DNA of 39,012 nt from Pseudomonadota bacterium (GCA_021781775.1 JAJXWE010000001.1:1-39012); one strand, 5' to 3'. Shown: positions 5,517-35,647, numbered from the stretch's first letter. Notes: a model not told the origin generated them from the letters alone. Translations and numbers: made by a program.

Positions 5517-6880
5517 CGGATGCGAGCCCCCTGGCGCATCAGTTCCTTCTGCACTTCACCGACGTCGAGTCGATCAAAGGATTGGCCGGAGCGCACCGAG
5601 ATCGCCGCCGCAGCACCCGCGCCCTGGCCGCTCACAGCGCAGCACATCATGTTTCGCACGGCGGCATGCGAGATCCGATCGCCGCCGATCGAACGTCCAG
5701 CCACCAGCAGGTGTCCGACACCCTTCGGCACCAGCGCGCGGTACGGCACGTGGAAGTAGCGCCCCGTGGTCGGCAGGATCAGCACTCCATAGCCGTCGAT
5801 GAACTCCGGGAAAATGCCGATGGCATCGCCGAAGCGGGCCTCTCCACGCACGTCCTCTCCGGTCATGTTGTAGAGCGCATCGATCTTGCGTGTGTCGCGC
5901 ACTCCGAGCGTCATGCCGAAGTTGCGCAGCTTCGCCTGCTCGCAGCCGGGCATGAAGTGCTTGAGCGCCTCGATGGCATGGATCGCCTGGCGCCGCCCTT
6001 CGATCTCGGCGGCCGTGAGATCGTTGGCGTCCGTACCGTCGACGTTCGCCAGATGAATGATGTTCAGATAGGTCAGGTCCCCCTGGTCGGTGACGCTGCC
6101 CCAAGTCCCCGCGAGCGTGCTCAGCTTCGCCGGGATCAGCCCCGCTTCCACGGCGCGCTTGAACGGCTTGCGCAGGAATGGGGAAAACAGCTCGTCTTCC
6201 TTGCCGCTCGTCTCAATGTCCCATTCGCTGTTGCCGGCCCAGTCGCGATAGGTCTGCGGATCGGCCTTGACCTGCTCGAGAAAGCGGACCTTGTTTACAC
6301 CGGCCATGGAGAACATGACCGAGGCGGCCATCATCTGCTCACGCGGGCTTTTGTGCACTGCGGCCCCAGCGCGGGCCGCCACATCCGCATCCCCAGTCGC
6401 ATCGATCACGCGCTTGGCCAGCAACGCTTCGCGCCCGGACTTGCTTTCCGTTATGACGCCGCGGATCAGGCCATCCTCCACGATCGGCGCCACGCAAAGC
6501 CGATGCAGAAACGGCGTGATGCCGGCTTCTTCGATCAGCACGTCCGCGACGTACTTGAACATCTCGGCATCCAGGGCATGACTGTCGGACTGAGGCTCGG
6601 GAGTGGCCGCTCCCATGGCCTTCGCCCGCTGCTCGAGCTCGATGCCGATTCCTTCGCAGTCCACGGTCTGCTGGTGGCGGTACCAGGCGAAGCCTTCTAC
6701 GCCGACCTGGGTGATGTTGCCGCCGAAGCAGCCGTAACGGTCAAGGAGCGCAGTGCGCGCCCCGGCACGGGCGGCGGCCAACGCCGCCGAGAGGCCGCCA
6801 GGGCCGCTGCCGATCACCAGAACCTCTGTCTCGTGAATCACATCGACACTGCGGGCGGGCTCGGGAATTTGCTTAGGCAT
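5513..6880 (-). CDS. FAD-dependent oxidoreductase (FAD_oxidored/PF12831-like), substrate unknown
   Basis: 455 aa. N-terminal dinucleotide fold VLVIGSGPGGLSAALAAARAGARTALLDRYGCFGGN. The overall pattern matches the poorly characterised FAD_oxidored family as I recall it. Confidence 0.7.
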   Translation of the reverse strand: MPKQIPEPARSVDVIHETEVLVIGSGPGGLSAALAAARAGARTALLDRYGCFGGNITQVGVEGFAWYRHQQTVDCEGIGIELEQRAKAMGAATPEPQSDSHALDAEMFKYVADVLIEEAGITPFLHRLCVAPIVEDGLIRGVITESKSGREALLAKRVIDATGDADVAARAGAAVHKSPREQMMAASVMFSMAGVNKVRFLEQVKADPQTYRDWAGNSEWDIETSGKEDELFSPFLRKPFKRAVEAGLIPAKLSTLAGTWGSVTDQGDLTYLNIIHLANVDGTDANDLTAAEIEGRRQAIHAIEALKHFMPGCEQAKLRNFGMTLGVRDTRKIDALYNMTGEDVRGEARFGDAIGIFPEFIDGYGVLILPTTGRYFHVPYRALVPKGVGHLLVAGRSIGGDRISHAAVRNMMCCAVSGQGAGAAAAISVRSGQSFDRLDVGEVQKELMRQGARIR

Positions 6881-8993: not shown

Positions 8994-9242
8994 ACCGCAG
9001 GAGCGGGGCGAACCATGCTGGCGCCCGACGCACCATGCTGAAGCAACAGCTCGCTGCCGGTTTGCATGAAGGGGGCTGTCACGTCGGTATACACCGGCGT
9101 GGGACGAAGAATCGGCCGCCCATGCTCCGGGCGCAAAAATGAGTACGACGTGGAGTCCCTTCCTGTTCACGCAAAACAGCACAGCGGCAGTTCCGGGAGG
9201 GAGACCCAATGTCATCAAACATACATCCGGGGGAGAGTTGTC

Positions 9243-12041: not shown

Positions 12042-14069
12042 GTGAACAGTATCGTGTCGCAACCCTTGTCTTCCGTCGAGGCGGAAGTCGGCCGGATTCG
12101 CGAGCTGCTCAATCAGCGGCAGCTGGAACCGGCACTCGCGGCCACCAAGGCTCTTGCCGCGCAGGTGCCCGAGAATCGGGACGTGCTTTACCTGCTTGCC
12201 CTGGCGCAGCGTCACCTGCAGCGGATCGAGGACGCGCTGGACACTCTTGAGCGGCTGGAGCGTCTGCACCCGCGGTTCAGCCGCATTTACCAGGAACGGG
12301 GCCATTGCTTCGTAGCGCAGCGTGATGCGTCAAGGGCCATCGACGCCTTTCTGCGGGCCGTCAACATCAACCCGGCGCTGCCCGCCAGCTGGAGCATGCT
12401 GGAGGGCCTGTATCGCATGACGGGTCAGGAGGACAACGCCCGCATGGCGGCCGGGCACGTCGAGACGCTGAAGGGTCTGCCGCCGGAGGTAGTCCGAGCG
12501 ACCTCGCTATTCTCCGACGGCGAACTGGCGGCGGCCGAGCAGATCACTCGTGCCTACCTGCTCGCGCACGGGGATCATATAGAGGCGATGCGGTTGCTTG
12601 CGCGGATCGGGATGGCAAGGGACGTGCTCGATGATGCCGAGATCCTTCTCGAGGCGGTGCTCGAGCGGGCGCCGGATTACCGGGCGGCTCGTCTTGACTA
12701 CGCACGGGTGCTGGTGGAGCGGCACAAGTATCCACGCGCCTGCGAGCAGCTCGAGCGGCTGCTCGAACTCGATCCTCCCAACAGGGAGTACCGGGTGTTG
12801 TACGCGACCGCCCGCGTTGGCCTCGGCCAGCACGAGCAGGCAATCAGCCTATACCGAGCGCTGCTCGCTGAGACGCCGGACTCGCCCGAGCTGCATCTGT
12901 CCGTGGCGCACGCGCTGAAGACGCTCGGACGCACGCCTGAGGCCATAGAGAGTTACCGCGCAGCGGCGCGCGCCCGGCCCAGCTACGGCGACGCCTATTG
13001 GAGCCTTGCCAATCTCAAGACCTACCGCTTCACGGACGAGGAGATCTCCTGCATGCGCGCCGAGGAGGCCTCTTCCGCCAGCTCGAACATCGACCGCTGC
13101 CACCTGTGCTTTGCTCTCGGCAAGGCGCTCGAGGATCGCGGCGAGTACGCCGAGTCCTTCGAATTCTATGCGCGCGGCAACGCGCTGAAACGCGCCGAGA
13201 GCCGCTACCGCGCCGAGATCATCGAGAACAACACCCGGCTGCAGATCGAGGTCTGTACGTCGGAGTTCTTCGCCGCGCGCGCGGGCAGCGGCGCGGCGAG
13301 CGAGGAGCCGATCTTCATCGTCGGACTGCCCCGCTCCGGCTCGACGCTCCTCGAGCAGATCCTGGCGTCGCATCCCCAGGTCGATGGCACTCAGGAGCTC
13401 GCCGAGGTGCCGCGTATCGTGCAGGATCTGCAGGGCCGCGATCCGGATCTAGACAACCCGCGTTATCCGGGCGGGCTGCGCGAGCTCGGGAACGAGCAGC
13501 TGCGGCGTCTCGGCGAGCGGTACCTTGCGGAGACGCGCGTCTACCGCGGCGACAGGCTGCGCTTCATGGACAAGATGCCGAACAATTTCCGGCATATCGG
13601 CCTGATCCACCTGATGCTGCCCAACGCGCGCATCATTGACGTGCGGCGGGAGCCCATGGCCTGCTGCTTCGGCAATCTCAAGCAGCTCTTCGCTTCGGGG
13701 CAGGAGTTCACCTACAGCATCGAGGACATCGCGCGTTACTACCGCACCTACCTCGATCTGATGGACCACTGGGACCGGGTGCTGCCCGGCAGGGTCCTGC
13801 GCGTGCATCACGAGGACGTGGTCGCGGATCTCGAAGTCAACGTCAGGCGGATCCTTGAGTTCTGCGGCCTACCGTTCGATCCGGCCTGCGTCGAGTTCCA
13901 CAAGACCGAGCGCAGCGTTCGCACCGCGAGCTCCGAGCAGGTCCGCCGGCCGATCTACCGCGAGGGGCTCGAGCAGTGGAAGCGATACGAGCCCTGGCTC
14001 GCGCCGCTGCGCGAGGCGCTCGGGGACGCGCTCTGGCGTTATCGCCCGGCGGGACCCACGGCGCAGTGA
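12042..14069 (+). CDS. TPR-repeat protein fused to a PAPS-dependent sulfotransferase domain
   Basis: 675 aa with a GTG start after GAGG. The N-terminal ~400 aa are TPR-like repeats. The C-terminal part has the 5'-PSB loop IFIVGLPRSGSTLLEQIL and a typical sulfotransferase body (...MPNNF.HIGLIHLMLPNARIIDVRREPMACCF...). This fusion is commonly encoded next to TonB-dependent receptors. Confidence 0.8.
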   Translation: MNSIVSQPLSSVEAEVGRIRELLNQRQLEPALAATKALAAQVPENRDVLYLLALAQRHLQRIEDALDTLERLERLHPRFSRIYQERGHCFVAQRDASRAIDAFLRAVNINPALPASWSMLEGLYRMTGQEDNARMAAGHVETLKGLPPEVVRATSLFSDGELAAAEQITRAYLLAHGDHIEAMRLLARIGMARDVLDDAEILLEAVLERAPDYRAARLDYARVLVERHKYPRACEQLERLLELDPPNREYRVLYATARVGLGQHEQAISLYRALLAETPDSPELHLSVAHALKTLGRTPEAIESYRAAARARPSYGDAYWSLANLKTYRFTDEEISCMRAEEASSASSNIDRCHLCFALGKALEDRGEYAESFEFYARGNALKRAESRYRAEIIENNTRLQIEVCTSEFFAARAGSGAASEEPIFIVGLPRSGSTLLEQILASHPQVDGTQELAEVPRIVQDLQGRDPDLDNPRYPGGLRELGNEQLRRLGERYLAETRVYRGDRLRFMDKMPNNFRHIGLIHLMLPNARIIDVRREPMACCFGNLKQLFASGQEFTYSIEDIARYYRTYLDLMDHWDRVLPGRVLRVHHEDVVADLEVNVRRILEFCGLPFDPACVEFHKTERSVRTASSEQVRRPIYREGLEQWKRYEPWLAPLREALGDALWRYRPAGPTAQ

Positions 14070-14070
14070 C

Positions 14071-15633
14071 ATGACGGCATCAGATCCTTCTCCATCCGGT
14101 GCTTCTCCCGCCGGCCCGCTCGAGGCGCGCTTCGACCTGCTGGTCGTGGGCGGCGGGATCAACGGCGCCGGGATCGCGCGCGATGCGGCCGGCAGGGGAC
14201 TGCGGGTGTGCCTTGTCGAGCAATCGGACCTGTCTTCGTTCACTTCCTCGGCGAGCACCAAGCTCATCCACGGCGGACTGCGCTATCTCGAATACGGCGA
14301 GTTCCGCCTGGTGCGCGAAGCGCTGGCCGAGCGGGAGCGTTTGCTCGCCATCGCCCCTCATCTCGTGCATCCGCTGCGCTTCGTGCTGCCGCACGCGCCC
14401 ACTCTGCGGCCGCGCTGGCAGATGCGCGCCGGCCTGTTTCTCTACGACCACCTGGGCGGCCACCGCCGGCTGCCGGGGTCGCGCTCGGTGGACCTGCGGC
14501 GCGCGCTCGCGGGCCGGGCGCTCAAGGCGGACTTTCGGCGCGGCTTCGCCTATTCCGACTGCCGCGTCGATGACAGTCGCCTCGTCGTCGCCAATGCGCG
14601 CGACGCGGCCGACCGCGGCGCGGTGATCCTCCCGCGTACCCGCCTGGTGACGGCGCGCGCCGCACACGACGGCTGGCGCGTGGAGTGCCGGAACCTCACG
14701 AGCGGCGAGAGCGTCCCACTGCGGGCCACGGCGGTGGTCAATGCCGCGGGCCCGTGGGTCAACGAGGTTCGGGAGGCATTCGGCCTGCAGGCCGCCGAGC
14801 CGATCCGGCTGGTGCGGGGTAGCCACCTCGTCCTACCGCGGCTGTTCGAGGGCGACCATGCGTACATCCTGCAGAATCCGGACCATCGCATCGTGTTCGC
14901 CATCCCATTCCAGGACGACTTCACCCTGGTCGGCACCACCGACGTGCCGCACACCGGCTCGCTCGAGAGCGTGGCCATCACGGCCGAGGAAATCGCCTAC
15001 CTCTGCGAGAGTATCAACCGCTACTTCAAACAGCCGATCCGTCCGCACAATGTGCTGTGGAGCTACTCGGGCGTGCGCGCGCTGCGCGACGACGGCGCGG
15101 CGGACGCCTCCGCCGTGACTCGGGACTACGAGCTGCTGCTGGAGCGGGCCGCTCAGGGCGCACCCCTGCTGTCCGTGCTCGGCGGCAAGATCACCACCTA
15201 CCGCAGGCTGGCGGAGGCGGCGCTCGCACTGCTGCAGCCGGTGATCGGCGGTGCGGCAACGCCCTGGACCGCCTCCGCCGCGCTGCCCGGCGGAGACATG
15301 CCGGGCGCCAACTTCGCGGAGTTCGCCGAGGAGGCGACCCGGCGCTGGCCATTCCTCGAACCACGACACCTGCGCAGGCTGGTGTGCGCGTACGGCACGC
15401 GCGTGGAGCGAGTGCTGCACGGGGCGCGCACGGCTGCGGACCTCGGCGAGCCTCTGGGCGCGGATCTCACCGCGGCAGAAGTCGACCACCTGCGGCGCGA
15501 GGAATGGGTCGTCACCTCGCAGGACATCCTGTGGCGCCGCAGCAAGCTCGGACTGCGCTTGACGGCGGACGAGCTGGAACGGCTCGATCGGTACCTGCAG
15601 GCCGAATCCCCACTGCGGAGAGCATACTCATGA
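14071..15633 (+). CDS. glpD: Aerobic glycerol-3-phosphate dehydrogenase (FAD)
   Basis: Start chosen at ATG 14071 (MTASDPS...), 1 nt after the upstream stop; the track ORF extension from 13855 lies inside the previous gene. The FAD fold is [53 protein letters not shown]. Confidence 0.9.
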
Positions 15634-17144
15634 CTCCCGTGACCCATGGCAAGTACGTCGGCGCGATCGATCAAGGCACCACCAGCACGCGCTTCATGGT
15701 GTTTGGACACCAGGGAGAGGTGCTTGCGAGCGCCCAGCTCGAGCATCGCCAGATCTACCCGCAGCCTGGCTGGGTAGAGCACGATCCGTTCGAGATCTGG
15801 ACCAACACGCGGCAGGTCATCGAGACGGCGCTCGACCAGGCCGGCCTGGGCGCCCGGAACCTCGTGGCGGTGGGCATCACCAACCAGCGCGAGACCACGC
15901 TGCTCTGGGACCGGCGCAGCGGCAAGCCGCTGCACAACGCTCTCGTCTGGCAGGACACCCGGGTCGCCGGCGAGGTCGCCGCCCTGGCGAGCGCGAGCGG
16001 CCTGGACCGGTTCCGCGGCAAGACCGGGCTGCCGCTCGCAACCTACTTCAGCGCACTGAAGCTCAAGCGACTGCTCGATGACGTCCCGCATGGGCGCGAA
16101 CTCGCCGAAGCGGGCGATGCCCTGTTCGGCACCATCGATTCGTGGCTGCTGTGGAACCTCACCGGTGGAACGCAGGGCGGCGTGCACGTCACGGACGTGA
16201 CCAACGCCAGCCGCACCCAGCTCATGAATCTCGCGACGCTGGCGTGGGACGACGAGCTGCTCTCGGCGTTCGGGGTGCCGCGCACCTGCCTGCCCCGCAT
16301 CGCTTCCTCGAGCGAAGTCTACGGGGAGTGTCGGCTGCCGGCGCTCTCCGGCGTGCCGATCGCCGGGGATCTCGGCGATCAGCAGGCCGCCCTCGTCGGC
16401 CAGACGTGCCTGCGGCGCGGCGATGCCAAGAACACCTACGGCACCGGCTGTTTCCTGTTGATGAACACTGGCGAACAGCCGGTGGCTTCGCGGTCGGGCC
16501 TGATTACGACGGTGGCCTACCAGTTCGGACGGGAGCGTCCCTGCTATGCGCTCGAGGGCTCGGTGGCGGTGGCTGGCGCCCTGGTGCAATGGCTGCGGGA
16601 CCGCCTGGGCATCATCAAGAGCAGCGCGGACATCGAGTCGCTCGCCCAGGAGGTCGAGGACAATGGCGATGTTTATTTCGTACCCTCCTTCTCCGGGTTG
16701 TTCGCGCCGCATTGGCGCTCCGACGCCCGCGGCGTCATCGCGGGACTCACCGGTTACGCGAGCCGCGCGCACCTGGCGCGCGCCGCGCTCGAGGCCACCG
16801 CCTATCAGACGCGCGACGTGCTCGAGGCGATGGAGAAGGACTCGGGCACTGCGCTCACCGAGCTGCGCGTCGATGGAGGCATGGTGGTGAACGAGCTGCT
16901 GATGCAGTTCCAGGCCGACCTTCTCGATGTCGGCGTGGTGCGTCCCCAGGTTACCGAGACCACGGCGCTCGGCGCCGCGTACGCGGCAGGCCTCGCCACG
17001 GGCTACTGGAAGAGTCGCGATGACCTGATCGCGAACTGGCAAGTCGATCGGCGCTGGCGCCCAGCCATGGGCGCCGAGCAGCGCGCACACCTGTATCACT
17101 CCTGGCAGAAGGCGCTCGAGCGCTCGCTGGGTTGGATTGACTGA
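15630..17144 (+). CDS. glpK: Glycerol kinase
   Basis: The start ATG 15630 overlaps the glpD stop (ATGA). The sequence [25 protein letters not shown]...[13 protein letters not shown]...WQDTR is canonical FGGY/GlpK. 504 aa. Confidence 0.93.
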
Positions 17145-17162
17145 CACGACGAGGGGATCGAG

Positions 17163-17888
17163 ATGGGAAGCGGGTTCTGGGGCGAGTTTGTCGGCACGGC
17201 GGTGCTCATCCTGCTGGGTAACGGCGTGGTCGCCTGCGTGGCGCTCGACAAGTCATTCGGCCACGGTGGCGGGTGGATCGTCATCACGGCAGGCTGGTGT
17301 TTCGCGGTCATGGCCGGGGTCCTCACGGCCCTCGCCCTGGGCGCGCCGGCCTACCTCAATCCCGCGGTCGCCATCGGGATCGCCGTGGCCACGGGCAAGT
17401 GGAGCGGCATACCGGGATATGTCCTTGCGGAGCTGCTTGGTGCGATGGCGGGCGCCACGCTCGTGTGGCTGCATTACCTGCATCACTGGGGGGTGACCCC
17501 CGATGCGGCCGCCAAGCGTGCCTGCTTCTGCACCGCGCCGGCCATCTCGCATCTCCCGGCGAACCTGCTCAGCGAAATCATCGGCACTTTCGTGCTGGTG
17601 CTGGTGGCCGCGGCGATCGGCTCCGCGCGGCTGGCCCCGCACGGCCTGCCGGCGGGCCTGGGCCCGGTCGTAGTGGCGTTCCTGGTGTGGGCCATCGGCC
17701 TGTCCCTCGGCGGCCCTACGGGGTACGCCATCAACCCCGCGCGGGACCTGGGGCCGCGCATCATGCACGCCGTGCTTCCCGTCGCGGGCAAGGGCAGCTC
17801 CGAGTGGGGCTACGCGCCGGTACCGGTGATCGGCCCGGTCGTTGGTGCCACGCTCGCGGGTTTGTGCGTACACCTATTGTCGATATGA
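17163..17888 (+). CDS. glpF: Aquaglyceroporin / glycerol uptake facilitator (MIP family)
   Basis: 241 aa, six hydrophobic segments and both NPA boxes (NPAVAIG and NPARDLGPR). Confidence 0.88.
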   Translation: MGSGFWGEFVGTAVLILLGNGVVACVALDKSFGHGGGWIVITAGWCFAVMAGVLTALALGAPAYLNPAVAIGIAVATGKWSGIPGYVLAELLGAMAGATLVWLHYLHHWGVTPDAAAKRACFCTAPAISHLPANLLSEIIGTFVLVLVAAAIGSARLAPHGLPAGLGPVVVAFLVWAIGLSLGGPTGYAINPARDLGPRIMHAVLPVAGKGSSEWGYAPVPVIGPVVGATLAGLCVHLLSI

Positions 17889-17906
17889 CAGCCCTGGAGA
17901 CCTCGC

Positions 17907-19277
17907 ATGCAGCAAGAATCACTCCAACTTGATGCCGCCGCGGTCCGCGGGATGTTCGACGAACGGCACATCGAGCGCGCGAAAGTCGGTGTGTTCGATA
18001 TCGACGGGATCCTGCGCGGCAAGTACATGGGGCGCGAGAAGTTCCTGTCCGCGCTCGAGAAGGGATTCGGGTTCTGCGACGTGGTGCTGGGGTGGGACTC
18101 CAACGACCAGCTCTGCGACAACGTGCGCTTCACCGGCTGGCACACGGCGTTCCCCGATGCCACCGCGCGCATCTTGCCGGCGACATGCCGCAACATTCCC
18201 TTCGAGCCGGACACCCCGCTTTTCCTCGCGGAGTTCTCCGGTGCCGCCGAGGCGATTTGCCCGCGCGGCACCCTGCGGCGGGTGCTAGACCGGGCCGCGC
18301 GCCTTGGCTACAGCACGCACGCCGCGGTCGAGTACGAGTTCTTCCTTTTTAAGGAAACGCCCGAGTCAGTGCGCAACAAAGGCTACCGCGATCTGCAGAC
18401 ACTCACGCCGGGCAACTTCGGGTACTCGGTGCTACGCAACTCGGTGCACGCGGAGTTCTACCAGGCGCTGCTCGATCTCGCCTCCGCCATGCGTATGCCT
18501 ATCGAGAGTCTGCACACCGAGACCGGTCCCGGGGTGCTCGAAGCCGCCCTCGCATACTGTGGGGCGCTCGAGGCGGCGGACCGCGCGGCGTTGTTCAAGA
18601 CCTTCGCGAAAGTGCTGGCGCAACGCCACGGCCTGATGGCGACCTTCATGGCCAAGTGGTCGAACCGTTATCCCGGCCAGAGCGGACACCTGCACCTGTC
18701 GCTGCAGCGCGCCGACGGTGCGCCGGTCTTTCACGATCCGGCCCGGCCGCACGAGATATCAGACGAGATGCGCTGGTTCATCGGCGGACAGCAGGCGCTC
18801 ATGCCGGAGTGCCTGGCGATGGTCGCCTGCACCGTCAACAGCTACTCGCGCCTCGTCCCCGGTTACTGGGCGCCGACCTCGGCGACCTGGGGCGTGGAGA
18901 ATCGCACCACGGCGCTGCGCGTCATCCGCGGGGGTGCCTCCAGCCAGCGCGTGGAGTATCGCATTGCGGCCGCCGACATCAATCCCTACCTGGCGCTCGC
19001 CGCGGCCATCGGCACCGGTCTGTGGGGCATCGAGCACCGCATCGAGCCCGATGCGCCGATGGTGGGCAATGCCTATGACCGTGAGCATCCGCCGCACCGC
19101 CGGCTGCCGGCGACGCTGGAGGAGGCGGCCGAGCGGCTGCTCTCATCCGAGGCAGCGCGCGAGCTGTTCGGGAACGCCTTCGTCGAGCACTTCGCCGCCA
19201 CCCGGCAATGGGAGGAGCGGGAATTTCGCAAGGCGATCACGGATTGGGAGTTGTCCCGTTACTTCGAGATCATTTGA
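17907..19277 (+). CDS. Glutamine-synthetase-family ATP-dependent ligase (gamma-glutamyl-amine synthetase type, PuuA/IpuC-like)
   Basis: 456 aa. GS catalytic-domain blocks: AVEYEFFLF, HTETGPGVLE, ATFMAKW...PGQSGHLHLSL, NSYSRLVPGYWAP, WGVENRTTALRV, VEYRIAAADINPYLALAA. It is encoded next to an ALDH and a GATase-type hydrolase, as in gamma-glutamylation pathways. Confidence 0.8.
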   Translation: MQQESLQLDAAAVRGMFDERHIERAKVGVFDIDGILRGKYMGREKFLSALEKGFGFCDVVLGWDSNDQLCDNVRFTGWHTAFPDATARILPATCRNIPFEPDTPLFLAEFSGAAEAICPRGTLRRVLDRAARLGYSTHAAVEYEFFLFKETPESVRNKGYRDLQTLTPGNFGYSVLRNSVHAEFYQALLDLASAMRMPIESLHTETGPGVLEAALAYCGALEAADRAALFKTFAKVLAQRHGLMATFMAKWSNRYPGQSGHLHLSLQRADGAPVFHDPARPHEISDEMRWFIGGQQALMPECLAMVACTVNSYSRLVPGYWAPTSATWGVENRTTALRVIRGGASSQRVEYRIAAADINPYLALAAAIGTGLWGIEHRIEPDAPMVGNAYDREHPPHRRLPATLEEAAERLLSSEAARELFGNAFVEHFAATRQWEEREFRKAITDWELSRYFEII

Positions 19278-19286
19278 GAGTCCCTC

Positions 19287-20678
19287 ATGAGCACCCTGTT
19301 ACAGACCATCAGTCCCGTCGATGGCCGCGTATATGTCGAGCGGCCGTTGGCCGACACGAAGGCCATTGACGCGGCGCTCGAGGCGGCGCGGCGCGCTCAG
19401 GTTACCTGGGCCGCCACGCCGGTCGCGACCCGAGTGGCGCTGCTTGGCCGCGCGGTCGATGTGTTCATCGCCAAGACCTCCGTCATCGCTGAAGAGATCG
19501 CCTGGCAGATGGGCCGGCCCGTAGCGCACGCCCCCGGCGAGGTTCGCGGCTTCGAGGAACGCGCCCGCTACATGCTGGGCATCGCCGAGCGCGCGCTTGA
19601 GCCCATCGATCCCGGACCGAAGCCGGGCTTCGTGCGGCGGATCAAGCGCGCGCCGCTCGGCGTCGTGGCGGTGGTCGCGCCCTGGAATTATCCCTACCTG
19701 ACGGCGGTGAACGCGGTGATTCCGGCCCTCGCCGCCGGCAACGCCGTCGTCCTCAAACATTCGCATCAGACGCCGCTGTGCGCGGAGCGCTTCGCCGAGG
19801 CATTCGCCGCCGCCAGCCTGCCGGTCGGCGTGTTCCAGTTCCTGCATCTGTCCCACGAGGACACCTCGCGCCTGATGGGCGACCCGCGACTCGGCAGCGT
19901 GTGTTTCACCGGTTCGGTCGCGGGCGGCAAGGCGGTAGTCGCGGCCACTGCGGCGGGCTTCGCGACCTCGGGCCTGGAGCTCGGCGGCAAAGATCCCGCG
20001 TATGTGCGCGCCGACGCCAACCTGGAGCACGCCATCGAATCGCTGACCGATGGCGCGTTCTTCAACGCCGGCCAGTCCTGTTGCGGTATCAAGCGTATCT
20101 ACGTGGCTGCGCCGCTCTACGAGCGCTTCGTGGAAGGGGTGGTCGGATTGGCGAGCCGCTACCGCCTCGGCTCGCCGCTCGACCCCCAGACGACCCTTGG
20201 GCCTGTGGTGCGAGCCGCAGCCGCGGATCATGTCCGCTCGCAGGTCGACGCGGCGGTGGCCGCGGGCGCCCGACAGCTCGTCGAGGGCCGCCACTTCCCT
20301 CGGGACGAGCGCGGCACGCCCTACCTCGCGCCACAGGTGCTCGTCGACGTCGATCACTCGCACACGATCATGTGTGAAGAAACCTTCGGTCCGGCGGTCG
20401 GCATCATGAAGGTCTCATCCGACGAGGAAGCCATCCGGCTGATGAACGACAGCGCCTTCGGGCTGACGGCGGCAGTCTATTCCGCAGACCCAGAGCGGGC
20501 CGAGCAGATCGGTGATCGCCTCGAGACCGGTACGGTGTTTCTGAATCGCTGCGACTATCTCGATCCGGCGCTCGCCTGGACCGGAGTGAAGCATTCGGGC
20601 CGCGGCTGCACGCTCTCCCGCGTCGGCTACGAGTACCTGACACGTCCCAAGTCCTACCATCTCCGGGTGCAACTATGA
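19287..20678 (+). CDS. NAD(P)-dependent aldehyde dehydrogenase
   Basis: 463 aa. Seen: VAPWNYP, the catalytic Glu block LELGGKDP and the catalytic Cys block FFNAGQSCCGIKRIYV. Confidence 0.9.
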   Translation: MSTLLQTISPVDGRVYVERPLADTKAIDAALEAARRAQVTWAATPVATRVALLGRAVDVFIAKTSVIAEEIAWQMGRPVAHAPGEVRGFEERARYMLGIAERALEPIDPGPKPGFVRRIKRAPLGVVAVVAPWNYPYLTAVNAVIPALAAGNAVVLKHSHQTPLCAERFAEAFAAASLPVGVFQFLHLSHEDTSRLMGDPRLGSVCFTGSVAGGKAVVAATAAGFATSGLELGGKDPAYVRADANLEHAIESLTDGAFFNAGQSCCGIKRIYVAAPLYERFVEGVVGLASRYRLGSPLDPQTTLGPVVRAAAADHVRSQVDAAVAAGARQLVEGRHFPRDERGTPYLAPQVLVDVDHSHTIMCEETFGPAVGIMKVSSDEEAIRLMNDSAFGLTAAVYSADPERAEQIGDRLETGTVFLNRCDYLDPALAWTGVKHSGRGCTLSRVGYEYLTRPKSYHLRVQL

Positions 20679-21841
20679 TGACTTCCTGGCACGCCAACTG
20701 GAACTACCCGACCCGGATCTGGGCCGGACCGGGCCGCATCGCCGAGCTCCCCAAGGCCTGCACCGAGCTCGGCATCCGCCGGCCGCTGCTCGTCACGGAC
20801 ATCGGCCTGCTGCGCCATCCCATGATCAGCGCCGCGCTCAAAACGCTGCCCGGCGCTGCGCTGTTCGGCGAAGTCAAAGGCAACCCCACAGGAGCCAATG
20901 TGGAAGCGGGCCTCGCCGCCTATCGTTCTGCGGGGCATGACGGCGTGGTGGCCTTCGGCGGCGGCTCGGCGCTCGATGCAGGCAAGGTCATCGCCTTCAT
21001 GAGCGGCCAGCGCCGGCCGATGTGGGACTTCGAGGACATCGGCGACTGGTGGACGCGCGCCGATCCGGCCGGGATCGCCCCGGTGGTCGCGGTGCCCACG
21101 ACGGCGGGCACGGGCTCCGAGGTCGGCCGCGCCAGCGTCATCCTCAACGAGGCGACCCACCAGAAGAAGATCATCTTTCATCCGCGGATGATGCCGGGCA
21201 TCGTGATCAGCGATCCCGGCCTCACCACCGGCCTACCCGCGCACGTTACCGCGGCCACGGGCTTGGATGCCTTCGTGCATTGCTTCGAAGCGTACTGCGC
21301 GCCGGGGTTCCACCCCCTCGCCGACGGCCTCGCCCTCGAGGGCATGCGCCTGATCGCCCGGTACCTGCTCCTGGCCTATGCGCGGGGTGACGACCTGGAG
21401 GCGCGCGCCAACATGCTGGCGGCGGCATCCATGGGTGCCGCCGCCTTCCAGAAGGGCCTGGGCGCCGTGCACGCCATCGCCCATCCGGTCGGCTCGTGGT
21501 TCGACACCCATCATGGCCTGACCAACGCCGTGATCCTGCCGTACGTCATGCGCCACAACCGCGCCGCCATCGCGGACAAGACTGTGATTATCGCCCGTCA
21601 GCTTGGCCTCGCCGCGCCCGGGTTCGACAGCCTGTTCGACTGGGTGCTCGAGTTCCGCCGCGCTCTGGGCATTCCGCACACGTTGGCGCAAATCGGCGTC
21701 TCCCTCGACAACGCCGCGGTCATCGGCGCGGAGGCGGCCGCCGACCCCTCGGCCGGCGGCAACCCGATTCCCGTGGAGGCGGTCGCGCTCGAGCGGATCT
21801 TTCGCGCGGCGGTCACCGGGGACCTCGACGCGGCAGCCTGA
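20675..21841 (+). CDS. Iron-containing (group III) alcohol dehydrogenase
   Basis: 388 aa. Seen: the GGGSALDAGK motif, VAVPTTAGTGSE, and metal-binding His residues in LDAFVHCFEAY and HAIAHPVG. Overlaps the ALDH stop by 4 nt. Confidence 0.88.
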   Translation: MMTSWHANWNYPTRIWAGPGRIAELPKACTELGIRRPLLVTDIGLLRHPMISAALKTLPGAALFGEVKGNPTGANVEAGLAAYRSAGHDGVVAFGGGSALDAGKVIAFMSGQRRPMWDFEDIGDWWTRADPAGIAPVVAVPTTAGTGSEVGRASVILNEATHQKKIIFHPRMMPGIVISDPGLTTGLPAHVTAATGLDAFVHCFEAYCAPGFHPLADGLALEGMRLIARYLLLAYARGDDLEARANMLAAASMGAAAFQKGLGAVHAIAHPVGSWFDTHHGLTNAVILPYVMRHNRAAIADKTVIIARQLGLAAPGFDSLFDWVLEFRRALGIPHTLAQIGVSLDNAAVIGAEAAADPSAGGNPIPVEAVALERIFRAAVTGDLDAAA

Positions 21842-21845
21842 TGTC

Positions 21846-22700
21846 ATGAGCGCGCCTCGCGTCCTGGTGGTCGATGGCAACGTGGCGGACATCCGTCGCA
21901 GGCAGATCGAGGCGGTCGGCTACGACACTGCGACCAGCTATGCCCGCGTCCTGCGGCGTTTGCGCCCGGACCTCGAGTGCGACATCGCGTACCCGGCGGA
22001 CGTGCACCCCGTGGCGGAGCTTGCGGGCGCACTCGATCGCTACGACGGCGTGGCGATCACCGGCTCGGCGCTGTGCATCGCCGACGGCGGCCCCGCCGTC
22101 GAGCGGCAGATCGATCTGGCGCGCAGCGTGTTCGATCGCGGGGTGCCGTTGTTTGGTAGCTGCTGGGGACTGCAGGTGGCAGTTGCGGCCGCGGGCGGGG
22201 TCGTCGAGCGCAATCCCCGTGGCCGGGAATTCGGCTTCGCGCGACGGATCCTGCTGACCGAGGCGGGCCGCGCACACCCGCTGTTCTCGGACAAGCCGGC
22301 AGTGTTCGAGGCCCCGACCGTGCACCGCGATCACGTCGCGAGACTGCCCGAGGGTGCGCAGGTGCTGGCCGTCAACGAGATGGGAGTGCAGGCGGCGACG
22401 TTCAGTCACCGCCGGGGAACGTGCTGGGGCGTGCAATACCACCCGGAATACGACTACGGAGACATCCGCGCCGTCGCGCAACGCTACGGGACGGCGCTGG
22501 TCGATGCCGGCCTGTTCGCTGGCCCAGAGGATCTCGATGATTTCGCGGCCGACATGGCGGCGCTGCAGGCCGATCCGGCGTGCGAGGCGCTGCTGTGGAA
22601 ACACGGCCTGGGACCCGCCATGCGCGCCGAGCCGCTGCGCCTGCGGGAACTCGCCAACTGGCTGACCCTGCAGGTCGAGCCGCGCGCCTGCTCCCGCTGA
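21846..22700 (+). CDS. Class I glutamine amidotransferase-like protein (candidate gamma-glutamyl-amide hydrolase, PuuD/IpuF-like)
   Basis: Start chosen at ATG 21846 (MSAPRVLVVDGN...), 4 nt after the ADH stop. Nucleophile elbow GSCWGLQV and GVQYHPEY (His) of the GATase1 triad are present. 284 aa. The track ORF extension from 21603 lies inside the ADH gene. Confidence 0.75.
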   Translation: MSAPRVLVVDGNVADIRRRQIEAVGYDTATSYARVLRRLRPDLECDIAYPADVHPVAELAGALDRYDGVAITGSALCIADGGPAVERQIDLARSVFDRGVPLFGSCWGLQVAVAAAGGVVERNPRGREFGFARRILLTEAGRAHPLFSDKPAVFEAPTVHRDHVARLPEGAQVLAVNEMGVQAATFSHRRGTCWGVQYHPEYDYGDIRAVAQRYGTALVDAGLFAGPEDLDDFAADMAALQADPACEALLWKHGLGPAMRAEPLRLRELANWLTLQVEPRACSR

Positions 22701-22748
22701 GAGGATCGGCGCCGGCAACCGGAGCAGATTGACAATGGGGGGCTTCCC

Positions 22749-24161
22749 ATGGTGCAAGCAGAGCCGCAGCTGTCCCGCTCCCTGAGCGGCCTCCACTTGT
22801 GGGGCATCGCCGTGGGACTGGTCATCTCCGGAGAGTACTTCGGTTGGAGTTACGGCTGGGCGCAGGCCGGGACGCTCGGCTTCCTTGTGACCACGGCGCT
22901 GATCGCCGTGATGTATACCACGTTCATCTTCAGCTACACCGAGCTCACCACCGCCATCCCGCACGCCGGCGGCCCGTTCGCGTACAGCTACCGTGCCTTC
23001 GGCCCCGTCGGCGGATACCTGGCGGGATTCGCGACGCTGGTGGAATTCGTGTTCGCGCCGCCAGCGATCGCGCTCGCCATCGGAGCCTACCTGCACGTGC
23101 AGTTCCACACTCTGGACGCGCGTATGGCCGCGGTGGGCGCCTACGCGGTGTTCATGACGCTCAACATCGTCGGGGTGATGATCGCCGCGACCTTCGAGCT
23201 GGTCATCACGCTCCTCGCCATCGCCGAGCTCGTCGTTTTCATGGCGGTGGTCGCTGGCGGCTTCAGCTGGGCGCATTACGTTCATCTCGGCTGGGCGGGA
23301 CATGCGCACCCGTCCGCGGCCATGTTTGGGGGGATCTTCGCCGCGATCCCGTTCGCGATCTGGTTCTTCCTCGCCATCGAGGGGGCGGCCATGGCGGCCG
23401 AGGAGGTCAAGAACCCCTCGCGCACCATTCCTCCGGCTTACATCGGCGGCATCATCACCCTGTTGGCACTCGCCTTCGGCACCATGATATTCGCCGGCGG
23501 GGCGGGCGACTGGCGCCGGCTCGCCAACATCAACGACCCCCTGCCGCGGGCGATGATGATCGTCGTGGGGGAGAACAGCGGCTGGATGCACCTGCTGGTG
23601 TGGATCGGACTCCTCGGGCTCATCGCCTCGTTCCACGGCATCATCATGGGCTACTCGCGGCAGATCTTCGCGCTCGCCCGCGCGGGCTTCCTGCCGGGGT
23701 TCCTCGGGCGTGTACACAAGCGGTGGCGGACACCTTACGTCGCGGTGCTCGCGGGCGGCGCCGTGGGCATCGCGGCCATCTACTCCGACAAGGTGATCAC
23801 CATCGCGGGGCAGTCGCTCACGGCGAGCATCGTGACGCTGTCGGCGCTGGGGGCCATCGTCATGTACATCGTAAGCCTCGCGAGCCTGCTGCGCCTGAGG
23901 CGGTGCGCGCCGGACTTGCCGCGGCCCTTCCGCACACCGCTGTTCCCGGTCTTTCCGCTGATGGCGCTGGTGCTGGCGGTCATCTCGCTCATTTCGATCG
24001 TCTATTACAATCCGCAGCTCGCGGTCATATTCGTCGTGCTCAGCACGCTCGGCGGAGCGGCCACCCGGTATCGCCTGCGGCGCCGGGGTCTGAACGGGGA
24101 CGATGCGCTGCTGCGGACGGGGGACTCACGGCAGATGGCGCCCGAAGCCGATTCCGAATAG
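22749..24161 (+). CDS. APC-superfamily amino-acid/ethanolamine permease (Eat/EutP type)
   Basis: 470 aa, about 12 TM. The N-terminal LSRSLSGLHLWGIAVGLVISGEYFGWSYGWAQAGTLGFL... strongly resembles the ethanolamine permease subfamily as I recall it. Confidence 0.75.
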   Translation: MVQAEPQLSRSLSGLHLWGIAVGLVISGEYFGWSYGWAQAGTLGFLVTTALIAVMYTTFIFSYTELTTAIPHAGGPFAYSYRAFGPVGGYLAGFATLVEFVFAPPAIALAIGAYLHVQFHTLDARMAAVGAYAVFMTLNIVGVMIAATFELVITLLAIAELVVFMAVVAGGFSWAHYVHLGWAGHAHPSAAMFGGIFAAIPFAIWFFLAIEGAAMAAEEVKNPSRTIPPAYIGGIITLLALAFGTMIFAGGAGDWRRLANINDPLPRAMMIVVGENSGWMHLLVWIGLLGLIASFHGIIMGYSRQIFALARAGFLPGFLGRVHKRWRTPYVAVLAGGAVGIAAIYSDKVITIAGQSLTASIVTLSALGAIVMYIVSLASLLRLRRCAPDLPRPFRTPLFPVFPLMALVLAVISLISIVYYNPQLAVIFVVLSTLGGAATRYRLRRRGLNGDDALLRTGDSRQMAPEADSE

Positions 24162-24241
24162 ACGCGCCCCGGCCGGCGCACATGCGGCATGCAGCGGCGC
24201 AATACGGCTGTCACGAAACTCATAGCGTAAAGGCGGATTCA

Positions 24242-26179
24242 ATGAACCGATCACCTCGAAGAAGCCCGGCCACATCCATCCGGATTTCCAAGGCGGCAGT
24301 CCTGCTCGCGAGCCTCGCGTTCGCCCTGCCCGCGCCAAGCCTTGCGGCCGCCCGTGGCGGCAAGGCCGCTACGGAGCATACCCTGACCCCGATCAAACAC
24401 GTCATCCTGATCATCGGGGAGAACCATACCTTCGACAACCTGTTCGCGACCTACGTGCCCCCCAACGGCCAGACGGTGTGGAATCTGCTGTCCATGGGAA
24501 TCGTGACAGCGAACGGCACGCCCGGCCCCAACGCCGCGCTCGCCCGCCAGTGGCAGGCCACCGACACGACGGTCTATTCGTCCGATCCGACCCACACACA
24601 GCCGCTCGCCGCGCTGCCGGCCCTGAACACGGCCGATGCGGTGGCAAAGCCGCGTTTCGCCACGGTCGAGCAGGCCGCGCTTCGCGAGCCCGGCCTGTCG
24701 CCCGGCGATGAACGGCTGCTGCTGACGGGCACCACGGGCCAGCCCGCGGACGTGATCGACAAGCGCTTCCCGAGCCAATTCCCGAACGCGCCCATCGACG
24801 TCACCCGTTACATCCCCTATGACTCGTACTGGGTCAGTCCGGTGCATCGCCTGTTCCAGATGCGCCAGGAACTCGATTGCTCGCCCGCGGCCATGACTGC
24901 GGTCAATCCGAGTGGCTGCCGCGCGGACCTGTTCCCCTGGGTGGAGCTTACCGTGGGCGCAGGCTCGAGCGGCGCCCCGCGGCCCGAGAACTACAATGAG
25001 CAGACGACGCAAGAAGGCCCCGCGGCCATGGCGTTCTACAACATGGCGCGCGGCGACGTCCCCTATCTCGCCAAGCTGGCGCGTGAGTACGCCCTGGCGG
25101 ACAACTATCACCAGGCGGCGCTCGGTGGTACCGGCGCCAATCACGTCATGCTCGGCTACGGCACGCTTATCTACTACGCGGACCACCGGGGCCAGCCGGC
25201 CCGGCCGCCCTTCAACCAGATCGAGAACCCGAACCCCGCGCCGGGTACCAACAATTGGTATGTCCAGGACGGCTACAAGGGCGGTTCCTACACCGAGTGC
25301 GCCGACCCCGCCCAACCCGGCGTGGCGGCGGTGGACAAATACCTCGCGGCCTTGCCCTACGCGGCGTTCAACCACGGCGACTGCCGGCCAGGGGCGTATT
25401 ACCTGGTCAACAACTATGAGCCCGGCTACCACGGCAACGGCACGCCAGCGCTGCTCGGTGCGGATCATTTCACCGTCCCGCCCACCCGGCAGGGCAACAT
25501 CGCGCTGCTCATGAGCCGCTACCACGTCAGCTGGAAGTACTACGGTGAAGGCTGGCAGGGCGGCCGATTGCGCCCGCACCTCGGGCGCTTCTGCCGCATC
25601 TGCGACCCGTTCCTCTATTCGACGCAGATCATGACCAACCCCGCGCTGCGCGCGGACAACGCCGGCATCCACGCCCTGTATGCCGATATCCGCAGCGACA
25701 CTCTGCCCGACGTCTCCTTCGTCAAACCGGATGAGCTGCTCGACGGACACCCGGCCTCCTCCAAGGTGGATCTGCTGGAGGGATTCATCCGCAAGATCAT
25801 CGACATGGTTCGCTCGCGGCCGGCTCTCTGGAAAGATACCGCAATCATGATCACCATGGACGAAGGCGGCGGGTTTTGGGACGAGGGGTACGTGCAGCCG
25901 ATCGACTTCTTCGGCGATGGCACCCGGGTGCCACTCATCGTGGTGTCGCGCTACTCACGCGGAGGACGGGTGGTCCACACTTATTACGATCACGTCTCGT
26001 TCGACAAGTTCGTGGAGGCCAACTGGGAGATCGGTCAGCGCATCTCCCGCTACAGCCGCGACAACCTGCCGGACCCCATCGCCTCGCCCGCCAGTCCTTA
26101 CGTGCCGCTCAACGCGCCAGCGATCGGCGACCTGATGGGCATGTTTCAGTTCAAGGTCCATGGGCCGCACGGCGGTTGA
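24242..26179 (+). CDS. Secreted phosphoesterase-family protein (phospholipase C / AcpA acid phosphatase family, PF04185-like)
   Basis: Start chosen at ATG 24242 (MNRSPRRSPATSIRISKAAVLLASLAFALPAPSLAAA, a signal peptide). The family signature IKHVILIIGENHTFDNLF and a later ITMDEGGGFWD block are present. 645 aa. The track ORF extension from 22799 lies inside the permease gene in another frame. Confidence 0.8.
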   Translation: MNRSPRRSPATSIRISKAAVLLASLAFALPAPSLAAARGGKAATEHTLTPIKHVILIIGENHTFDNLFATYVPPNGQTVWNLLSMGIVTANGTPGPNAALARQWQATDTTVYSSDPTHTQPLAALPALNTADAVAKPRFATVEQAALREPGLSPGDERLLLTGTTGQPADVIDKRFPSQFPNAPIDVTRYIPYDSYWVSPVHRLFQMRQELDCSPAAMTAVNPSGCRADLFPWVELTVGAGSSGAPRPENYNEQTTQEGPAAMAFYNMARGDVPYLAKLAREYALADNYHQAALGGTGANHVMLGYGTLIYYADHRGQPARPPFNQIENPNPAPGTNNWYVQDGYKGGSYTECADPAQPGVAAVDKYLAALPYAAFNHGDCRPGAYYLVNNYEPGYHGNGTPALLGADHFTVPPTRQGNIALLMSRYHVSWKYYGEGWQGGRLRPHLGRFCRICDPFLYSTQIMTNPALRADNAGIHALYADIRSDTLPDVSFVKPDELLDGHPASSKVDLLEGFIRKIIDMVRSRPALWKDTAIMITMDEGGGFWDEGYVQPIDFFGDGTRVPLIVVSRYSRGGRVVHTYYDHVSFDKFVEANWEIGQRISRYSRDNLPDPIASPASPYVPLNAPAIGDLMGMFQFKVHGPHGG

Positions 26180-26232: not shown

Positions 26233-26958
26233 TTAAGCGGCGACAAGACTGTACTCGTGGTGGAGTCCGCCGAGAATGGGGTTGGCGCGGACGGAATAGG
26301 TTTCACCACGGCGATGACGTGAGACGGACTTCGGGAGGGCGATGGTCGGAGGATCCGGAATCCCCGGTCCCAAAGACATATGCGGTCGGCCGCGGTTGTA
26401 GTGCTGAATCCATGTTTTCAGCAACGTACGCAAATGCGATTCGGAGAGCGGAATCACCCAGTCCAGGCACTCCCTGCGTAATGTGCCGATGACCTGCTCG
26501 CAGAGGGCATTCATCTTCGGACAGTGAGGGGCGGAGCGCAGTACACGGAGTCCCAGAGCCTGGACCGATTCATCGAGCCCGGGGGAGAAGATACTGTCCC
26601 GGTCGTGGAGCAGGAATCGATATCGGTGATCGAGGGTGGCAACTTCGCGCAGTTGCTCCAGCGTCCAGGCCGCGGTAGGGTGAACCGTGACGTTGCCGTG
26701 GACCAAGCGACGGGGCCCGCGCTCGATCACGACGAAGACGTAGAGCATGCGAAAGTTCGCTGTGATGGCGAGACAAAAGTCGCAGGCTAAGATTCCTTGG
26801 GCGTGCAGGCGCAGGAAGGTCGACCAGCGCAGATCCCCTCGTGGCCTGCCCGGCGGGCGCGGGGGCATGTACTTGCGCACGGTGCCAGGAGAGATCCGGA
26901 TGCCGAGCTTCAACAGCAACCAGTGAGCGATTGAGCAATGCGCCCCGATGGCGAGCAT
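26233..26958 (-). mobile_element. 5'-truncated rve (integrase-core, DDE) transposase gene, an IS remnant
   Basis: 241 aa. The DDE core appears intact (ACDF..., HDRDSIF..., NALCEQ, spacing about 60 and 35 aa), followed by LLKTWIQHYNRGRPHMSLG. The N-terminal HTH part found in full-length relatives is absent: a stop sits directly upstream of the ORF, and the homology ends at the AT-rich tract near 26978. Confidence 0.75.
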
Positions 26959-29965: not shown

Positions 29966-30220
29966 TCAGCTGCTCGGGCGTGAGCGGCTCAGTGCGATAG
30001 GCGCTGTCTCGAGACGACGCCGGAGGTCCGCCAACTCTCGGTCGCGACGCCCAAGCAAGCTCTGTAGGTCCCGGTAGGCTGCATAATAGTGGTCGACCAG
30101 CGCAGCAAGTTTACCGAGTTGTTCGCGGAGCTGCGCGGCTTCGCGCCGTAGCCGTAGAGTCGGCGCATCCGCGCGCGCTCTGCGCGCTGACTGGGGAGCT
30201 GAATCAGACGTTGTGCTCAT
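29966..30220 (-). CDS. ginD: Small helical/coiled-coil protein, fourth gene of the recombinase operon (GinD-like)
   Basis: 84 aa, Arg/Leu/Ala/Glu-rich with heptad-like stretches (LRREAAQLREQLGKLAALVDHYYAAYRDLQSLLGRRDRELADLRRRLE). Its ATG overlaps the stop of the upstream recombinase (ATGA at 30217-30220). The assignment rests on position and size only. Confidence 0.55.
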   Translation of the reverse strand: MSTTSDSAPQSARRARADAPTLRLRREAAQLREQLGKLAALVDHYYAAYRDLQSLLGRRDRELADLRRRLETAPIALSRSRPSS

Positions 30221-35364: not shown

Positions 35365-35647
35365 AGCTCGGCTCTCGAAGTCGCACAGACCCTCCCCGGA
35401 CCCCTCCCGGCTACTCGCCTCTTGCAGAGCGCCTTGGGAAAGGAAGGGGGAGTCTAGAAGAGATCGGAAAGAGATGGAGGGCGGGCTTGCTGGAGTTCCC
35501 AACATATCACGCCGGACTTGCCGTCAAGATCTGCGCGCGACCATTCTGGCCGTGCTCGCGAGCGCCTCCGGCGATCCTGACGGCTTCGCTGCGGCGTGGG
35601 GCTTCGTCCTCGGGCAATCCCGCCCGAGATCAAGACGGAGCTCGCTC

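Follow-up and report, generated by a model that had tools for sequence, protein, structure and literature searches.

A candidate operon for B12-independent ethanolamine catabolism by gamma-glutamylation, adjoining glycerol genes in a Pseudomonadota genome

In the Pseudomonadota bacterium assembly GCA_021781775.1, a 39,012-nucleotide stretch of DNA (JAJXWE010000001.1:1-39012, analyzed at its full length and referred to here as the window) carries a compact cluster of five genes encoding a glutamine synthetase (GS)-like ligase, an aldehyde dehydrogenase (ALDH), an iron-type alcohol dehydrogenase (Fe-ADH), a class-I glutamine amidotransferase (GATase)-fold hydrolase and an ethanolamine permease. 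An earlier note made from the sequence alone, the original prediction, had placed the first four genes at 17907-22700 and proposed for them a route from ethanolamine to glycine. Domain scores, the shared plus strand and the coding G+C bear out the four assignments, and we consider it probable that the cluster is a B12-independent ethanolamine catabolic operon working by gamma-glutamylation. Its genes are listed below with their domain evidence.

Gene content and conservation of the cluster

17907..19277, plus strand: GS-like gamma-glutamyl-amine ligase, 456 aa, putative glutamate--ethanolamine ligase (Gln-synt_C, 327 bits)
19287..20678, plus strand: NAD(P)-dependent ALDH, 463 aa, putative gamma-glutamyl-aminoacetaldehyde dehydrogenase (Aldedh, 407 bits)
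20675..21841, plus strand: Fe-ADH, 388 aa, putative gamma-glutamylethanolamide dehydrogenase (Fe-ADH and ADH_Fe_C domains)
21846..22700, plus strand: stand-alone class-I GATase-fold hydrolase, 284 aa, putative gamma-glutamylglycine hydrolase (PF00117, 66.5 bits; Peptidase_C26, 38.9 bits)
22749..24161, plus strand: Eat-type amino acid-polyamine-organocation (APC) family ethanolamine permease (NCBIfam TIGR00908, 578.6 bits against a cutoff of 381.75)

The five genes lie on one strand, separated by 9, -4, 4 and 48 bp, and an ATGA overlap joins the start of the Fe-ADH gene to the stop of the ALDH gene. The start of the GATase gene is ATG 21846, 4 bp past the ADH stop, and not TTG 21603 of the longest open reading frame (ORF). 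Third-codon-position G+C in the five frames is 0.83–0.89 in the window, which indicates that the frames are coding, and public contigs with the same genes carry independent calls of 456, 463, 388, 284 and 470 aa, and of 520 aa for the upstream glpD. This arrangement points to a tightly packed operon, whose genes are presumably co-transcribed.

The permease clears the cutoff of the curated 'ethanolamine permease' model TIGR00908, in agreement with the ethanolamine-type permease that the original prediction had noted next door. The lack of eutBC in the window, also part of that prediction, was upheld by a tblastn search with E. coli EutB and EutC, which returned nothing in the window (best E = 0.02). 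Neither protein was encoded in any of 80 related loci.

These 80 loci carry ligases at least 66% identical to that of the window; most belong to Steroidobacteraceae or to a range of Alphaproteobacteria, and among the cultured ones are Thalassospira, Dongia, Roseiarcus, Nitrobacter and Steroidobacter. In about 52 of the 64 scorable loci, across Gamma- and Alphaproteobacteria, GS, ALDH and Fe-ADH keep this collinear order, which argues against chance juxtaposition and for a functional link between the genes. A class-I GATase gene is present in 24 of the related loci examined, and the full GS-ALDH-ADH-GATase-Eat unit recurs in L009, L010, L013 and L253, where the ligases are 75–90% identical to the one studied here and the Eat orthologues, in the same position, 71–87% identical. 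Directly upstream, Eat-like permeases (353 bits, slightly under the cutoff) were found in 10 loci and ACT-family APC permeases in 16. The closest ligase homologues (78–90%) come from metagenomes, Steroidobacteraceae and other gammaproteobacterial metagenome-assembled genomes. On this ground an actinobacterial origin, which the high G+C had suggested, was rejected, and the source is taken to be a Steroidobacteraceae-like gammaproteobacterium. Members of the ligase lineage occur widely in Gamma- and Alphaproteobacteria of soil and freshwater, carry no annotation more specific than 'glutamine synthetase family protein', and have sister groups that would serve diamine pathways.

Ligase, dehydrogenases and hydrolase

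The ligase scores below every NCBIfam cutoff, reaching 214 of 429 bits for GlnA (TIGR00653) and 188 of 650 bits for the PuuA-type model (NF045547). In an alignment to E. coli GlnA it retains E129, E131, E212, E220, H269, E357, G265, R321, R359, H271 and R344; all metal, glutamate and ATP ligands of glutamine synthetase are kept. The flap residue E327 is replaced by Trp, N264 by Pro and Y179 by Phe, a pattern that extends across the clade, and the protein departs from type I GlnA in both score and residues. IpuC, PuuA and the known ethanolamine ligases also have an aromatic residue (W, F or Y) at position 327, and in them N264 and Y179 are likewise substituted, by different residues. With the ligands kept but these three positions changed, the enzyme is best read as a gamma-glutamyl-amine ligase and not as a true glutamine synthetase; a similar residue-pattern argument has been used for GlnA4 and PauA7 (PMC6529630).

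To place the enzymes among known systems, three sets of 80 loci each were compared: one around ligases of the Csal_0679 type (PDB 5dm3), with Halomonas and Phaeobacter among its members, one around ligases like PDB entry 11zs, a protein sharing about 92% identity with those of Brucella/Ochrobactrum, and one from actinobacteria. Both proteobacterial sets follow the published layout, i.e., rpiR on the minus strand, then FGase, DctQ, DctM, DctP, GS, ALDH and Fe-ADH. GlnA4-type ligases were selected in other Streptomyces by cluster architecture (short-chain dehydrogenase/reductase (SDR)-ALDH-ligase-regulator-permease-amidotransferase, after PMC6529630), and the values given for this type refer to those proteins, not to the S. 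coelicolor SCO1613 sequence itself. The window ligase is 29.7% identical to Csal_0679, 30.2% to the Phaeobacter type, 33.9% to the Brucella type (11zs), 34.2% to the Streptomyces GlnA4 type, 40.0% to an IpuC-annotated sequence, 28.6% to PuuA and 24.8% to GlnA.

In the ligase tree, the known ethanolamine ligases of proteobacteria and actinobacteria form one clade with 99.5% bootstrap support. Orthology of the window ligase to GlnA4, Csal_0679 or MED193_10046 was considered and rejected, given identities of 29.7–34.2% and the placement in the tree; its ethanolamine specificity is therefore suggested by genomic context and not by homology. In the comparison with PuuA, IpuC and GlnA4 that the original prediction had called for, no orthology to GlnA4 emerged, and the grouping of IpuC with the window clade reached a bootstrap of just 31.5%.

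More distant relatives, 55–57% identical (Pseudorhizobium, Rhodobacteraceae M382), are accompanied by an ALDH, a PotD-type ATP-binding cassette (ABC) transporter and a class-III aminotransferase, with no ADH; the M382 cluster also holds an FGase. Judged by gene content, such aminotransferase-type clusters would represent the diamine version of the same logic. Since an aminotransferase takes the place of the ADH in these relatives, the ADH would mark the amino-alcohol version within the clade. Two plasmid-borne examples with ligases 56–57% identical (L086 and L088; Pseudorhizobium flavum and Rhodobacteraceae bacterium M382) lie next to an N,N-dimethylformamidase gene, and look like an uncharacterised diamine gamma-glutamylation cluster.

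The two dehydrogenases are orthologous to those of known ethanolamine clusters. The ALDH is 50–57% identical to the ALDHs of the Csal_0679/Phaeobacter-type and Brucella-type clusters and occupies the same position, while the Fe-ADH is 52–58% identical to the ADHs of these clusters and follows the ligase in the same order; its identity to EutG and FucO is 32% and 31%, respectively. In neighbor-joining trees each enzyme falls within a single family, separated by a long stem from PuuC and the actinobacterial ALDHs in one case and from EutG and FucO in the other. In both trees the relatives of the window enzymes are mixed among those of known clusters and the two groups are not reciprocally monophyletic, so that both dehydrogenases belong to the enzyme families of the known pathway. 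The ALDH family also occurs in the aminotransferase-type (diamine) clusters and is therefore uninformative on chain length.

The hydrolase keeps the triad Cys106, His199 and Glu201, shared by every one of the 41 sequences aligned, among them PuuD. It is a stand-alone GuaA-like class-I GATase, and in the PDB it comes closest to GMP synthase subunit A (about 54 bits), followed by a gamma-glutamyl peptidase from a plant (37 bits). Assignment as a PuuD homologue was rejected, as the two are 20% identical at 33 bits and the window protein falls on the GuaA-like branch; similarity to the PuuD-like hydrolase (Peptidase_C26) of the Streptomyces clusters is barely detectable. About nine related loci that lack the GATase hold instead a protein of about 275 aa, which looks FGase-like by eye and has no NCBIfam hit. 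In an 87%-identical Steroidobacteraceae relative (L250, 13933-14417), the GATase is left as two fragments covering residues 1-46 and 196-281, with the region of the catalytic Cys gone and no Eat gene after it; this cluster appears to be decaying.

Proposed pathway, known systems and alternatives

The route from ethanolamine to glycine by gamma-glutamylation, as the original prediction had it, remains the best-supported interpretation of the cluster in view of the ligase residues, the families and order of the ADH and ALDH, the Eat permease and the absence of eutBC. In the proposed scheme, ethanolamine would be imported by the Eat permease and joined by the GS-like ligase, with ATP, to the gamma-carboxyl of glutamate, giving gamma-glutamylethanolamide. 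The Fe-ADH would then oxidize the free alcohol to gamma-glutamyl-aminoacetaldehyde, which the ALDH would convert to gamma-glutamylglycine. Finally, the class-I GATase-fold enzyme, using its Cys-His-Glu triad, would cleave the gamma-amide of gamma-glutamylglycine to release glutamate and glycine.

The pathway and its logic are already published. Ethanolamine gamma-glutamylation is known from Chromohalobacter salexigens and Agrobacterium (Vetting et al. 2015, as cited in PMC10132767), and the ethanolamine operon of Phaeobacter sp. MED193 is induced on phosphatidylethanolamine (PMC10132767). The latter comprises an RpiR regulator, a gamma-glutamylglycine amidohydrolase, a tripartite ATP-independent periplasmic (TRAP) transporter, an ethanolamine gamma-glutamylase and two dehydrogenases, i.e., gamma-glutamylacetaldehydeamide dehydrogenase and gamma-glutamylethanolamide dehydrogenase; the TRAP binding protein binds ethanolamine with a Kd of about 8 uM (PMC10132767). 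In Streptomyces coelicolor, GlnA4 (SCO1613) makes gamma-glutamylethanolamide in vitro, as the original prediction had noted for this genus, and the predicted later steps are the same, through an SDR, an ALDH and an amidotransferase (PMC6529630, Krysenko et al. 2019). With complete, transporter-bearing operons described for Chromohalobacter, Agrobacterium, Phaeobacter and Streptomyces, the novelty that the prediction attached to such an operon was overstated, and the locus varies a known pathway in its composition.

The Eto system of Chromohalobacter, Agrobacterium and Phaeobacter (TRAP transporter EtoVWX, ligase Csal_0679) shares with the window the four-step logic and the ligase-ALDH-Fe-ADH order. 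The ligases, however, are about 30–34% identical and belong to different clades; the Eto hydrolase is an FGase (PF05013), whereas the window has a class-I GATase, and uptake relies on TRAP in place of the APC-type Eat permease. The Eto cluster includes an RpiR regulator, which the window operon lacks, and the fusion to glpDKF and to a gene for a secreted phosphoesterase sets the window operon apart from Eto. The Streptomyces GlnA4 cluster, laid out as SDR, ALDH, glnA4, the EpuRI regulator, permease and amidotransferase, resembles the window in a ligase without E327 and the ammonium-site residues, an APC-type permease and a GATase-fold hydrolase. Yet the GlnA4-type ligase is 34% identical to that of the window and groups with the Csal and Brucella ligases, its ADH is an SDR and not an Fe-ADH, its ALDH lies on another branch, its hydrolase is a PuuD-like Peptidase_C26 and its permease is 33–35% identical to the window's.

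Similar chemistry operates in the Puu pathway of E. coli (PuuP, PuuA, PuuB, PuuC and PuuD), where a ligase masks the amine, an aldehyde is oxidized to the acid and a Cys-His-Glu hydrolase acts last. In Puu, the aldehyde is produced by an FAD oxidase from a second amine, whereas in the window an ADH would act on an alcohol; PuuA and PuuD are 28.6% and 20% identical to their window counterparts, PuuC lies outside the ALDH clade, and the operon has no PuuB-like oxidase. The Ipu pathway supplies the closest annotated ligase (IpuC-annotated, Paenarthrobacter aurescens pTC1; 40%), and its later steps, in which a gamma-glutamyl amino alcohol is oxidized to the gamma-glutamyl amino acid before hydrolysis, are those proposed here. 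It differs in requiring a P450, a ferredoxin and a reductase for gamma-glutamyl-isopropylamide, and its ADH is an SDR; domain scans of the window revealed no P450 or ferredoxin genes. Canonical B12-dependent eut systems (EutBC ammonia-lyase, with or without a microcompartment) share the presumed substrate, and an Eat permease is found in many of the short eut operons too, but EutB, EutC, the shell proteins and the need for cobalamin are all absent from the window route, and the eut products are acetaldehyde and ammonia, as against glycine and regenerated glutamate.

No description of this composition, i.e., the ligase lineage, the GATase, the APC permease and the glp fusion together, was found in the searchable literature. 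We tentatively suggest, at somewhat under even confidence, that a second GS-like ligase lineage was independently recruited to the conserved ALDH-Fe-ADH pair and joined to glpDKF and the phosphoesterase gene, so that a single operon would salvage both halves of the phosphatidylethanolamine (PE) headgroup.

Among the alternatives, the same chemistry could serve another small primary amino alcohol, such as 3-aminopropanol (yielding beta-alanine), alaninol (alanine), serinol or 4-aminobutanol (gamma-aminobutyric acid, GABA), with a permease of broader range. This would suit an uncharacterised ligase clade whose nearest annotated relative is IpuC, from a route that passes through alaninol, and an ALDH family that is shared with diamine clusters and carries no chain-length signal; elsewhere in the clade, moreover, the adjoining permeases are of other APC types, related to ACT or GABA permeases. 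We nevertheless regard it as unlikely, given that the permease clears the curated ethanolamine-permease cutoff, that the Fe-ADH is mixed among the ADHs of ethanolamine clusters and forms no subfamily of its own, that the link to glycerol and glycerol-3-phosphate (G3P) genes fits a phospholipid headgroup, and that the window encodes no P450 or other enzyme generating an unusual amino alcohol.

Gamma-glutamylation of a polyamine or diamine, i.e., putrescine, cadaverine or diaminopropane, in the manner of Puu is considerably less probable still. The ligase does match the NCBIfam gamma-glutamylputrescine synthetase model at 188 bits, and the nearest ligases outside its clade (55–57%) accompany PotD-type transporters and aminotransferases; however, the score is far under the cutoff of 650, identity to PuuA is low, the transporter is Eat and not PuuP or PotFGHI, and the window has an alcohol dehydrogenase in place of an amine oxidase (PuuB) or an aminotransferase for the second amine. 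Even less credible to us is a true glutamine synthetase, or a biosynthetic amide synthetase, to which the dehydrogenases would be functionally unrelated, a possibility that the original prediction had itself named as fatal to its proposal. Although type I GlnA gives the highest NCBIfam score, this score is half of the cutoff (214 against 429 bits), the E327W, N264P and Y179F replacements speak against glutamine synthetase activity, and the collinearity of GS, ALDH and Fe-ADH in Gamma- and Alphaproteobacteria is hard to reconcile with unrelated dehydrogenases.

Several observations weigh against ethanolamine catabolism by this operon, or against parts of the scheme. The window ligase falls in a separate clade (97.5% bootstrap), in which no characterised enzyme was found, and in 200 replicates it was never the exclusive sister of the known ethanolamine ligases; it is only 29.7–34.2% identical to the ethanolamine ligases of characterised pathways and nearer to the IpuC-annotated sequence (40%). 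The hydrolase is distant from PuuD and not homologous to the FGase of known clusters, and gamma-glutamylglycine is suggested as its substrate by its position and by its apparent exchange with the FGase-like protein in sister loci. The operon contains no internal regulator gene, a promoter and terminator scan of 11.8–26.8 kb gave counts no higher than shuffled sequence, and the sequencing runs that carry the stretch are DNA metagenomes only, none of them transcript-derived. Among the loci examined, the PF04185 phosphoesterase neighbor is confined to the window's own lineage. Finally, eutBC may be present elsewhere in the genome, beyond the window.

If the ethanolamine assignment is true, a function could be given to hundreds of proteobacterial genes annotated as 'GMP synthase', 'glutamine amidotransferase' or 'glutamine synthetase (family protein)'. 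The B12-independent ethanolamine route would then be modular, combining a conserved ADH-ALDH pair with an exchangeable ligase, an exchangeable hydrolase (of FGase, PuuD-like or GuaA-like GATase type) and an exchangeable transporter (of TRAP or APC type). The link between phospholipid turnover and ethanolamine catabolism, published for marine bacteria, would extend to bacteria of soil, peat and mine drainage; mine-drainage metagenomes contain 100% of the sampled words of the stretch. No new kind of pathway is revealed, and the use of the finding lies in annotation and in pathway modularity.

Glycerol genes and flanking DNA

The co-oriented run extends beyond the span of the original prediction, with four genes upstream of the ligase and one downstream of the permease.

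12042..14069, plus strand: tetratricopeptide repeat (TPR) and sulfotransferase-domain protein (Pfam Sulfotransfer_3, 178 bits, and TPR families)
14071..15633, plus strand: glpD, aerobic glycerol-3-phosphate dehydrogenase, start ATG 14071 (NCBIfam NF008899, 727 bits, cutoff 360)
15630..17144, plus strand: glpK, glycerol kinase, start ATG 15630 (NCBIfam TIGR01311, 719 bits, cutoff 590)
17163..17888, plus strand: glpF-like glycerol facilitator, a channel of the MIP family (Pfam MIP, 90 bits; under the cutoff of the NCBIfam models for MIP and aquaglyceroporin)
24242..26179, plus strand: secreted phosphoesterase of the phospholipase C (PLC)/AcpA superfamily, 645 aa (PF04185, 161 bits; signal-peptide-like N-terminus)

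From the TPR/sulfotransferase gene through glpD, glpK and glpF to the ligase, the spacing is 1, -4, 18 and 18 bp, and the phosphoesterase gene starts 80 bp past the Eat permease gene. As the TPR/sulfotransferase stop lies 1 bp ahead of the glpD start, co-transcription of these two genes is possible; their junction recurs in the 90%-identical relative L253, although the TPR/sulfotransferase protein is an odd partner for an operon of glycerol and ethanolamine. An Rfam scan of the window matched the tRNA alone, with no riboswitch or leader.

The phosphoesterase falls below the specific NCBIfam cutoffs (AcpA-type, 136 of 363; phosphatidylcholine PLC, 110 of 580), and the PDB entries closest to it, a phospholipase C and an acid phosphatase, score 64 bits. 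We speculate that it releases the headgroup from a phospholipid or from phosphoethanolamine. Because the operon is fused to glpDKF and to this secreted enzyme, its physiological source is probably the glycerol and the ethanolamine headgroup of PE or glycerophosphoethanolamine: glpDKF would take the glycerol and the operon the ethanolamine, and the phosphoesterase may supply both, which is the most speculative step of the scheme.

Glycerol genes accompany the cluster in other genomes as well. In L253, glpD adjoins the cluster, and in L009 a glpD-glpK pair lies about 3.5 kb upstream. A G3P-oxidase-like gene (seven loci) and an FGGY kinase gene are inserted between the ALDH and ADH genes in L022, L025, L028, L038 and L056. 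The FGGY kinase is related to GlpK, clustering over seven loci that include L009's own glpK, and the FGGY kinases of Dongiaceae/Rhodospirillales relatives are 38–44% identical to the window GlpK. We read the insertions in these five loci as an independent fusion of glycerol and ethanolamine catabolism. A GlpT/PgtP-like major facilitator superfamily (MFS) transporter is encoded in about six related loci.

PhnW (2-aminoethylphosphonate--pyruvate transaminase; 573 bits, cutoff 296) is encoded just upstream in about 10 loci of this ligase clade, all from Steroidobacteraceae; in L016, L030, L033, L041, L047 and L049 this PhnW-side region lies about 2–5 kb upstream of the ligase. Six PhnW loci have a second ALDH upstream, 33–35% identical to that of the window, and the GlpT/PgtP-like transporter recurs there (about six loci). 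Phosphonate and ethanolamine headgroup catabolism thus appear to be clustered together in these genomes. A HisN/IMPase-like phosphatase gene follows the ADH gene in seven loci.

The TPR-glp-ethanolamine block (13000-25000) has a G+C content of 66–71%, against 60–65% in its flanks, and lies in DNA rich in mobile elements. Its downstream edge is marked by an IS3/IS481-like transposase fragment (26233-26958, minus strand); the compositional contrast and the transposase boundary suggest that the block was acquired as a unit. At the left end of the window, tRNA-Phe (57-132) is followed directly by a P4-type tyrosine integrase gene (372-1667; Arm-DNA-bind_3, Phage_int_M and Phage_integrase), a pairing that constitutes the classic sequence signature of a genomic-island insertion site. 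A search of the window for a repeat of the tRNA-Phe 3' end that could mark the far attachment site gave none, so no far boundary was located.

Between the integrase and the block lies an AraC-family regulator gene (2907-3929, minus strand), whose product aligns with E. coli EutR over 306 aa at 30% identity and scores 150 bits against the NCBIfam EutR cutoff of 319. Beside it, also on the minus strand, are genes for an MFS transporter (4170-5516), a PF12831 FAD-dependent oxidoreductase (5513-6880) and malate synthase A (6928-8541). A link to the ethanolamine operon, from glycine or glycolaldehyde through glyoxylate to malate, is conceivable; none of these four genes lies near the cluster in the related loci. 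A TonB-dependent receptor gene (9066-11927) ends 114 bp upstream of the TPR/sulfotransferase gene, on the same strand.

PADLOC, run on the ORFs without annotation at 27-38 kb, gave no match. Two of the ORFs in the right-hand part of the window, 30217-32331 (704 aa) and 32091-33860 (589 aa), both on the minus strand, match neither Pfam nor PADLOC. They adjoin a second tyrosine recombinase gene (33864-35096, minus strand) and a RadC-like JAB-domain gene (35318-36142, plus strand), and are probably cargo of another mobile element.

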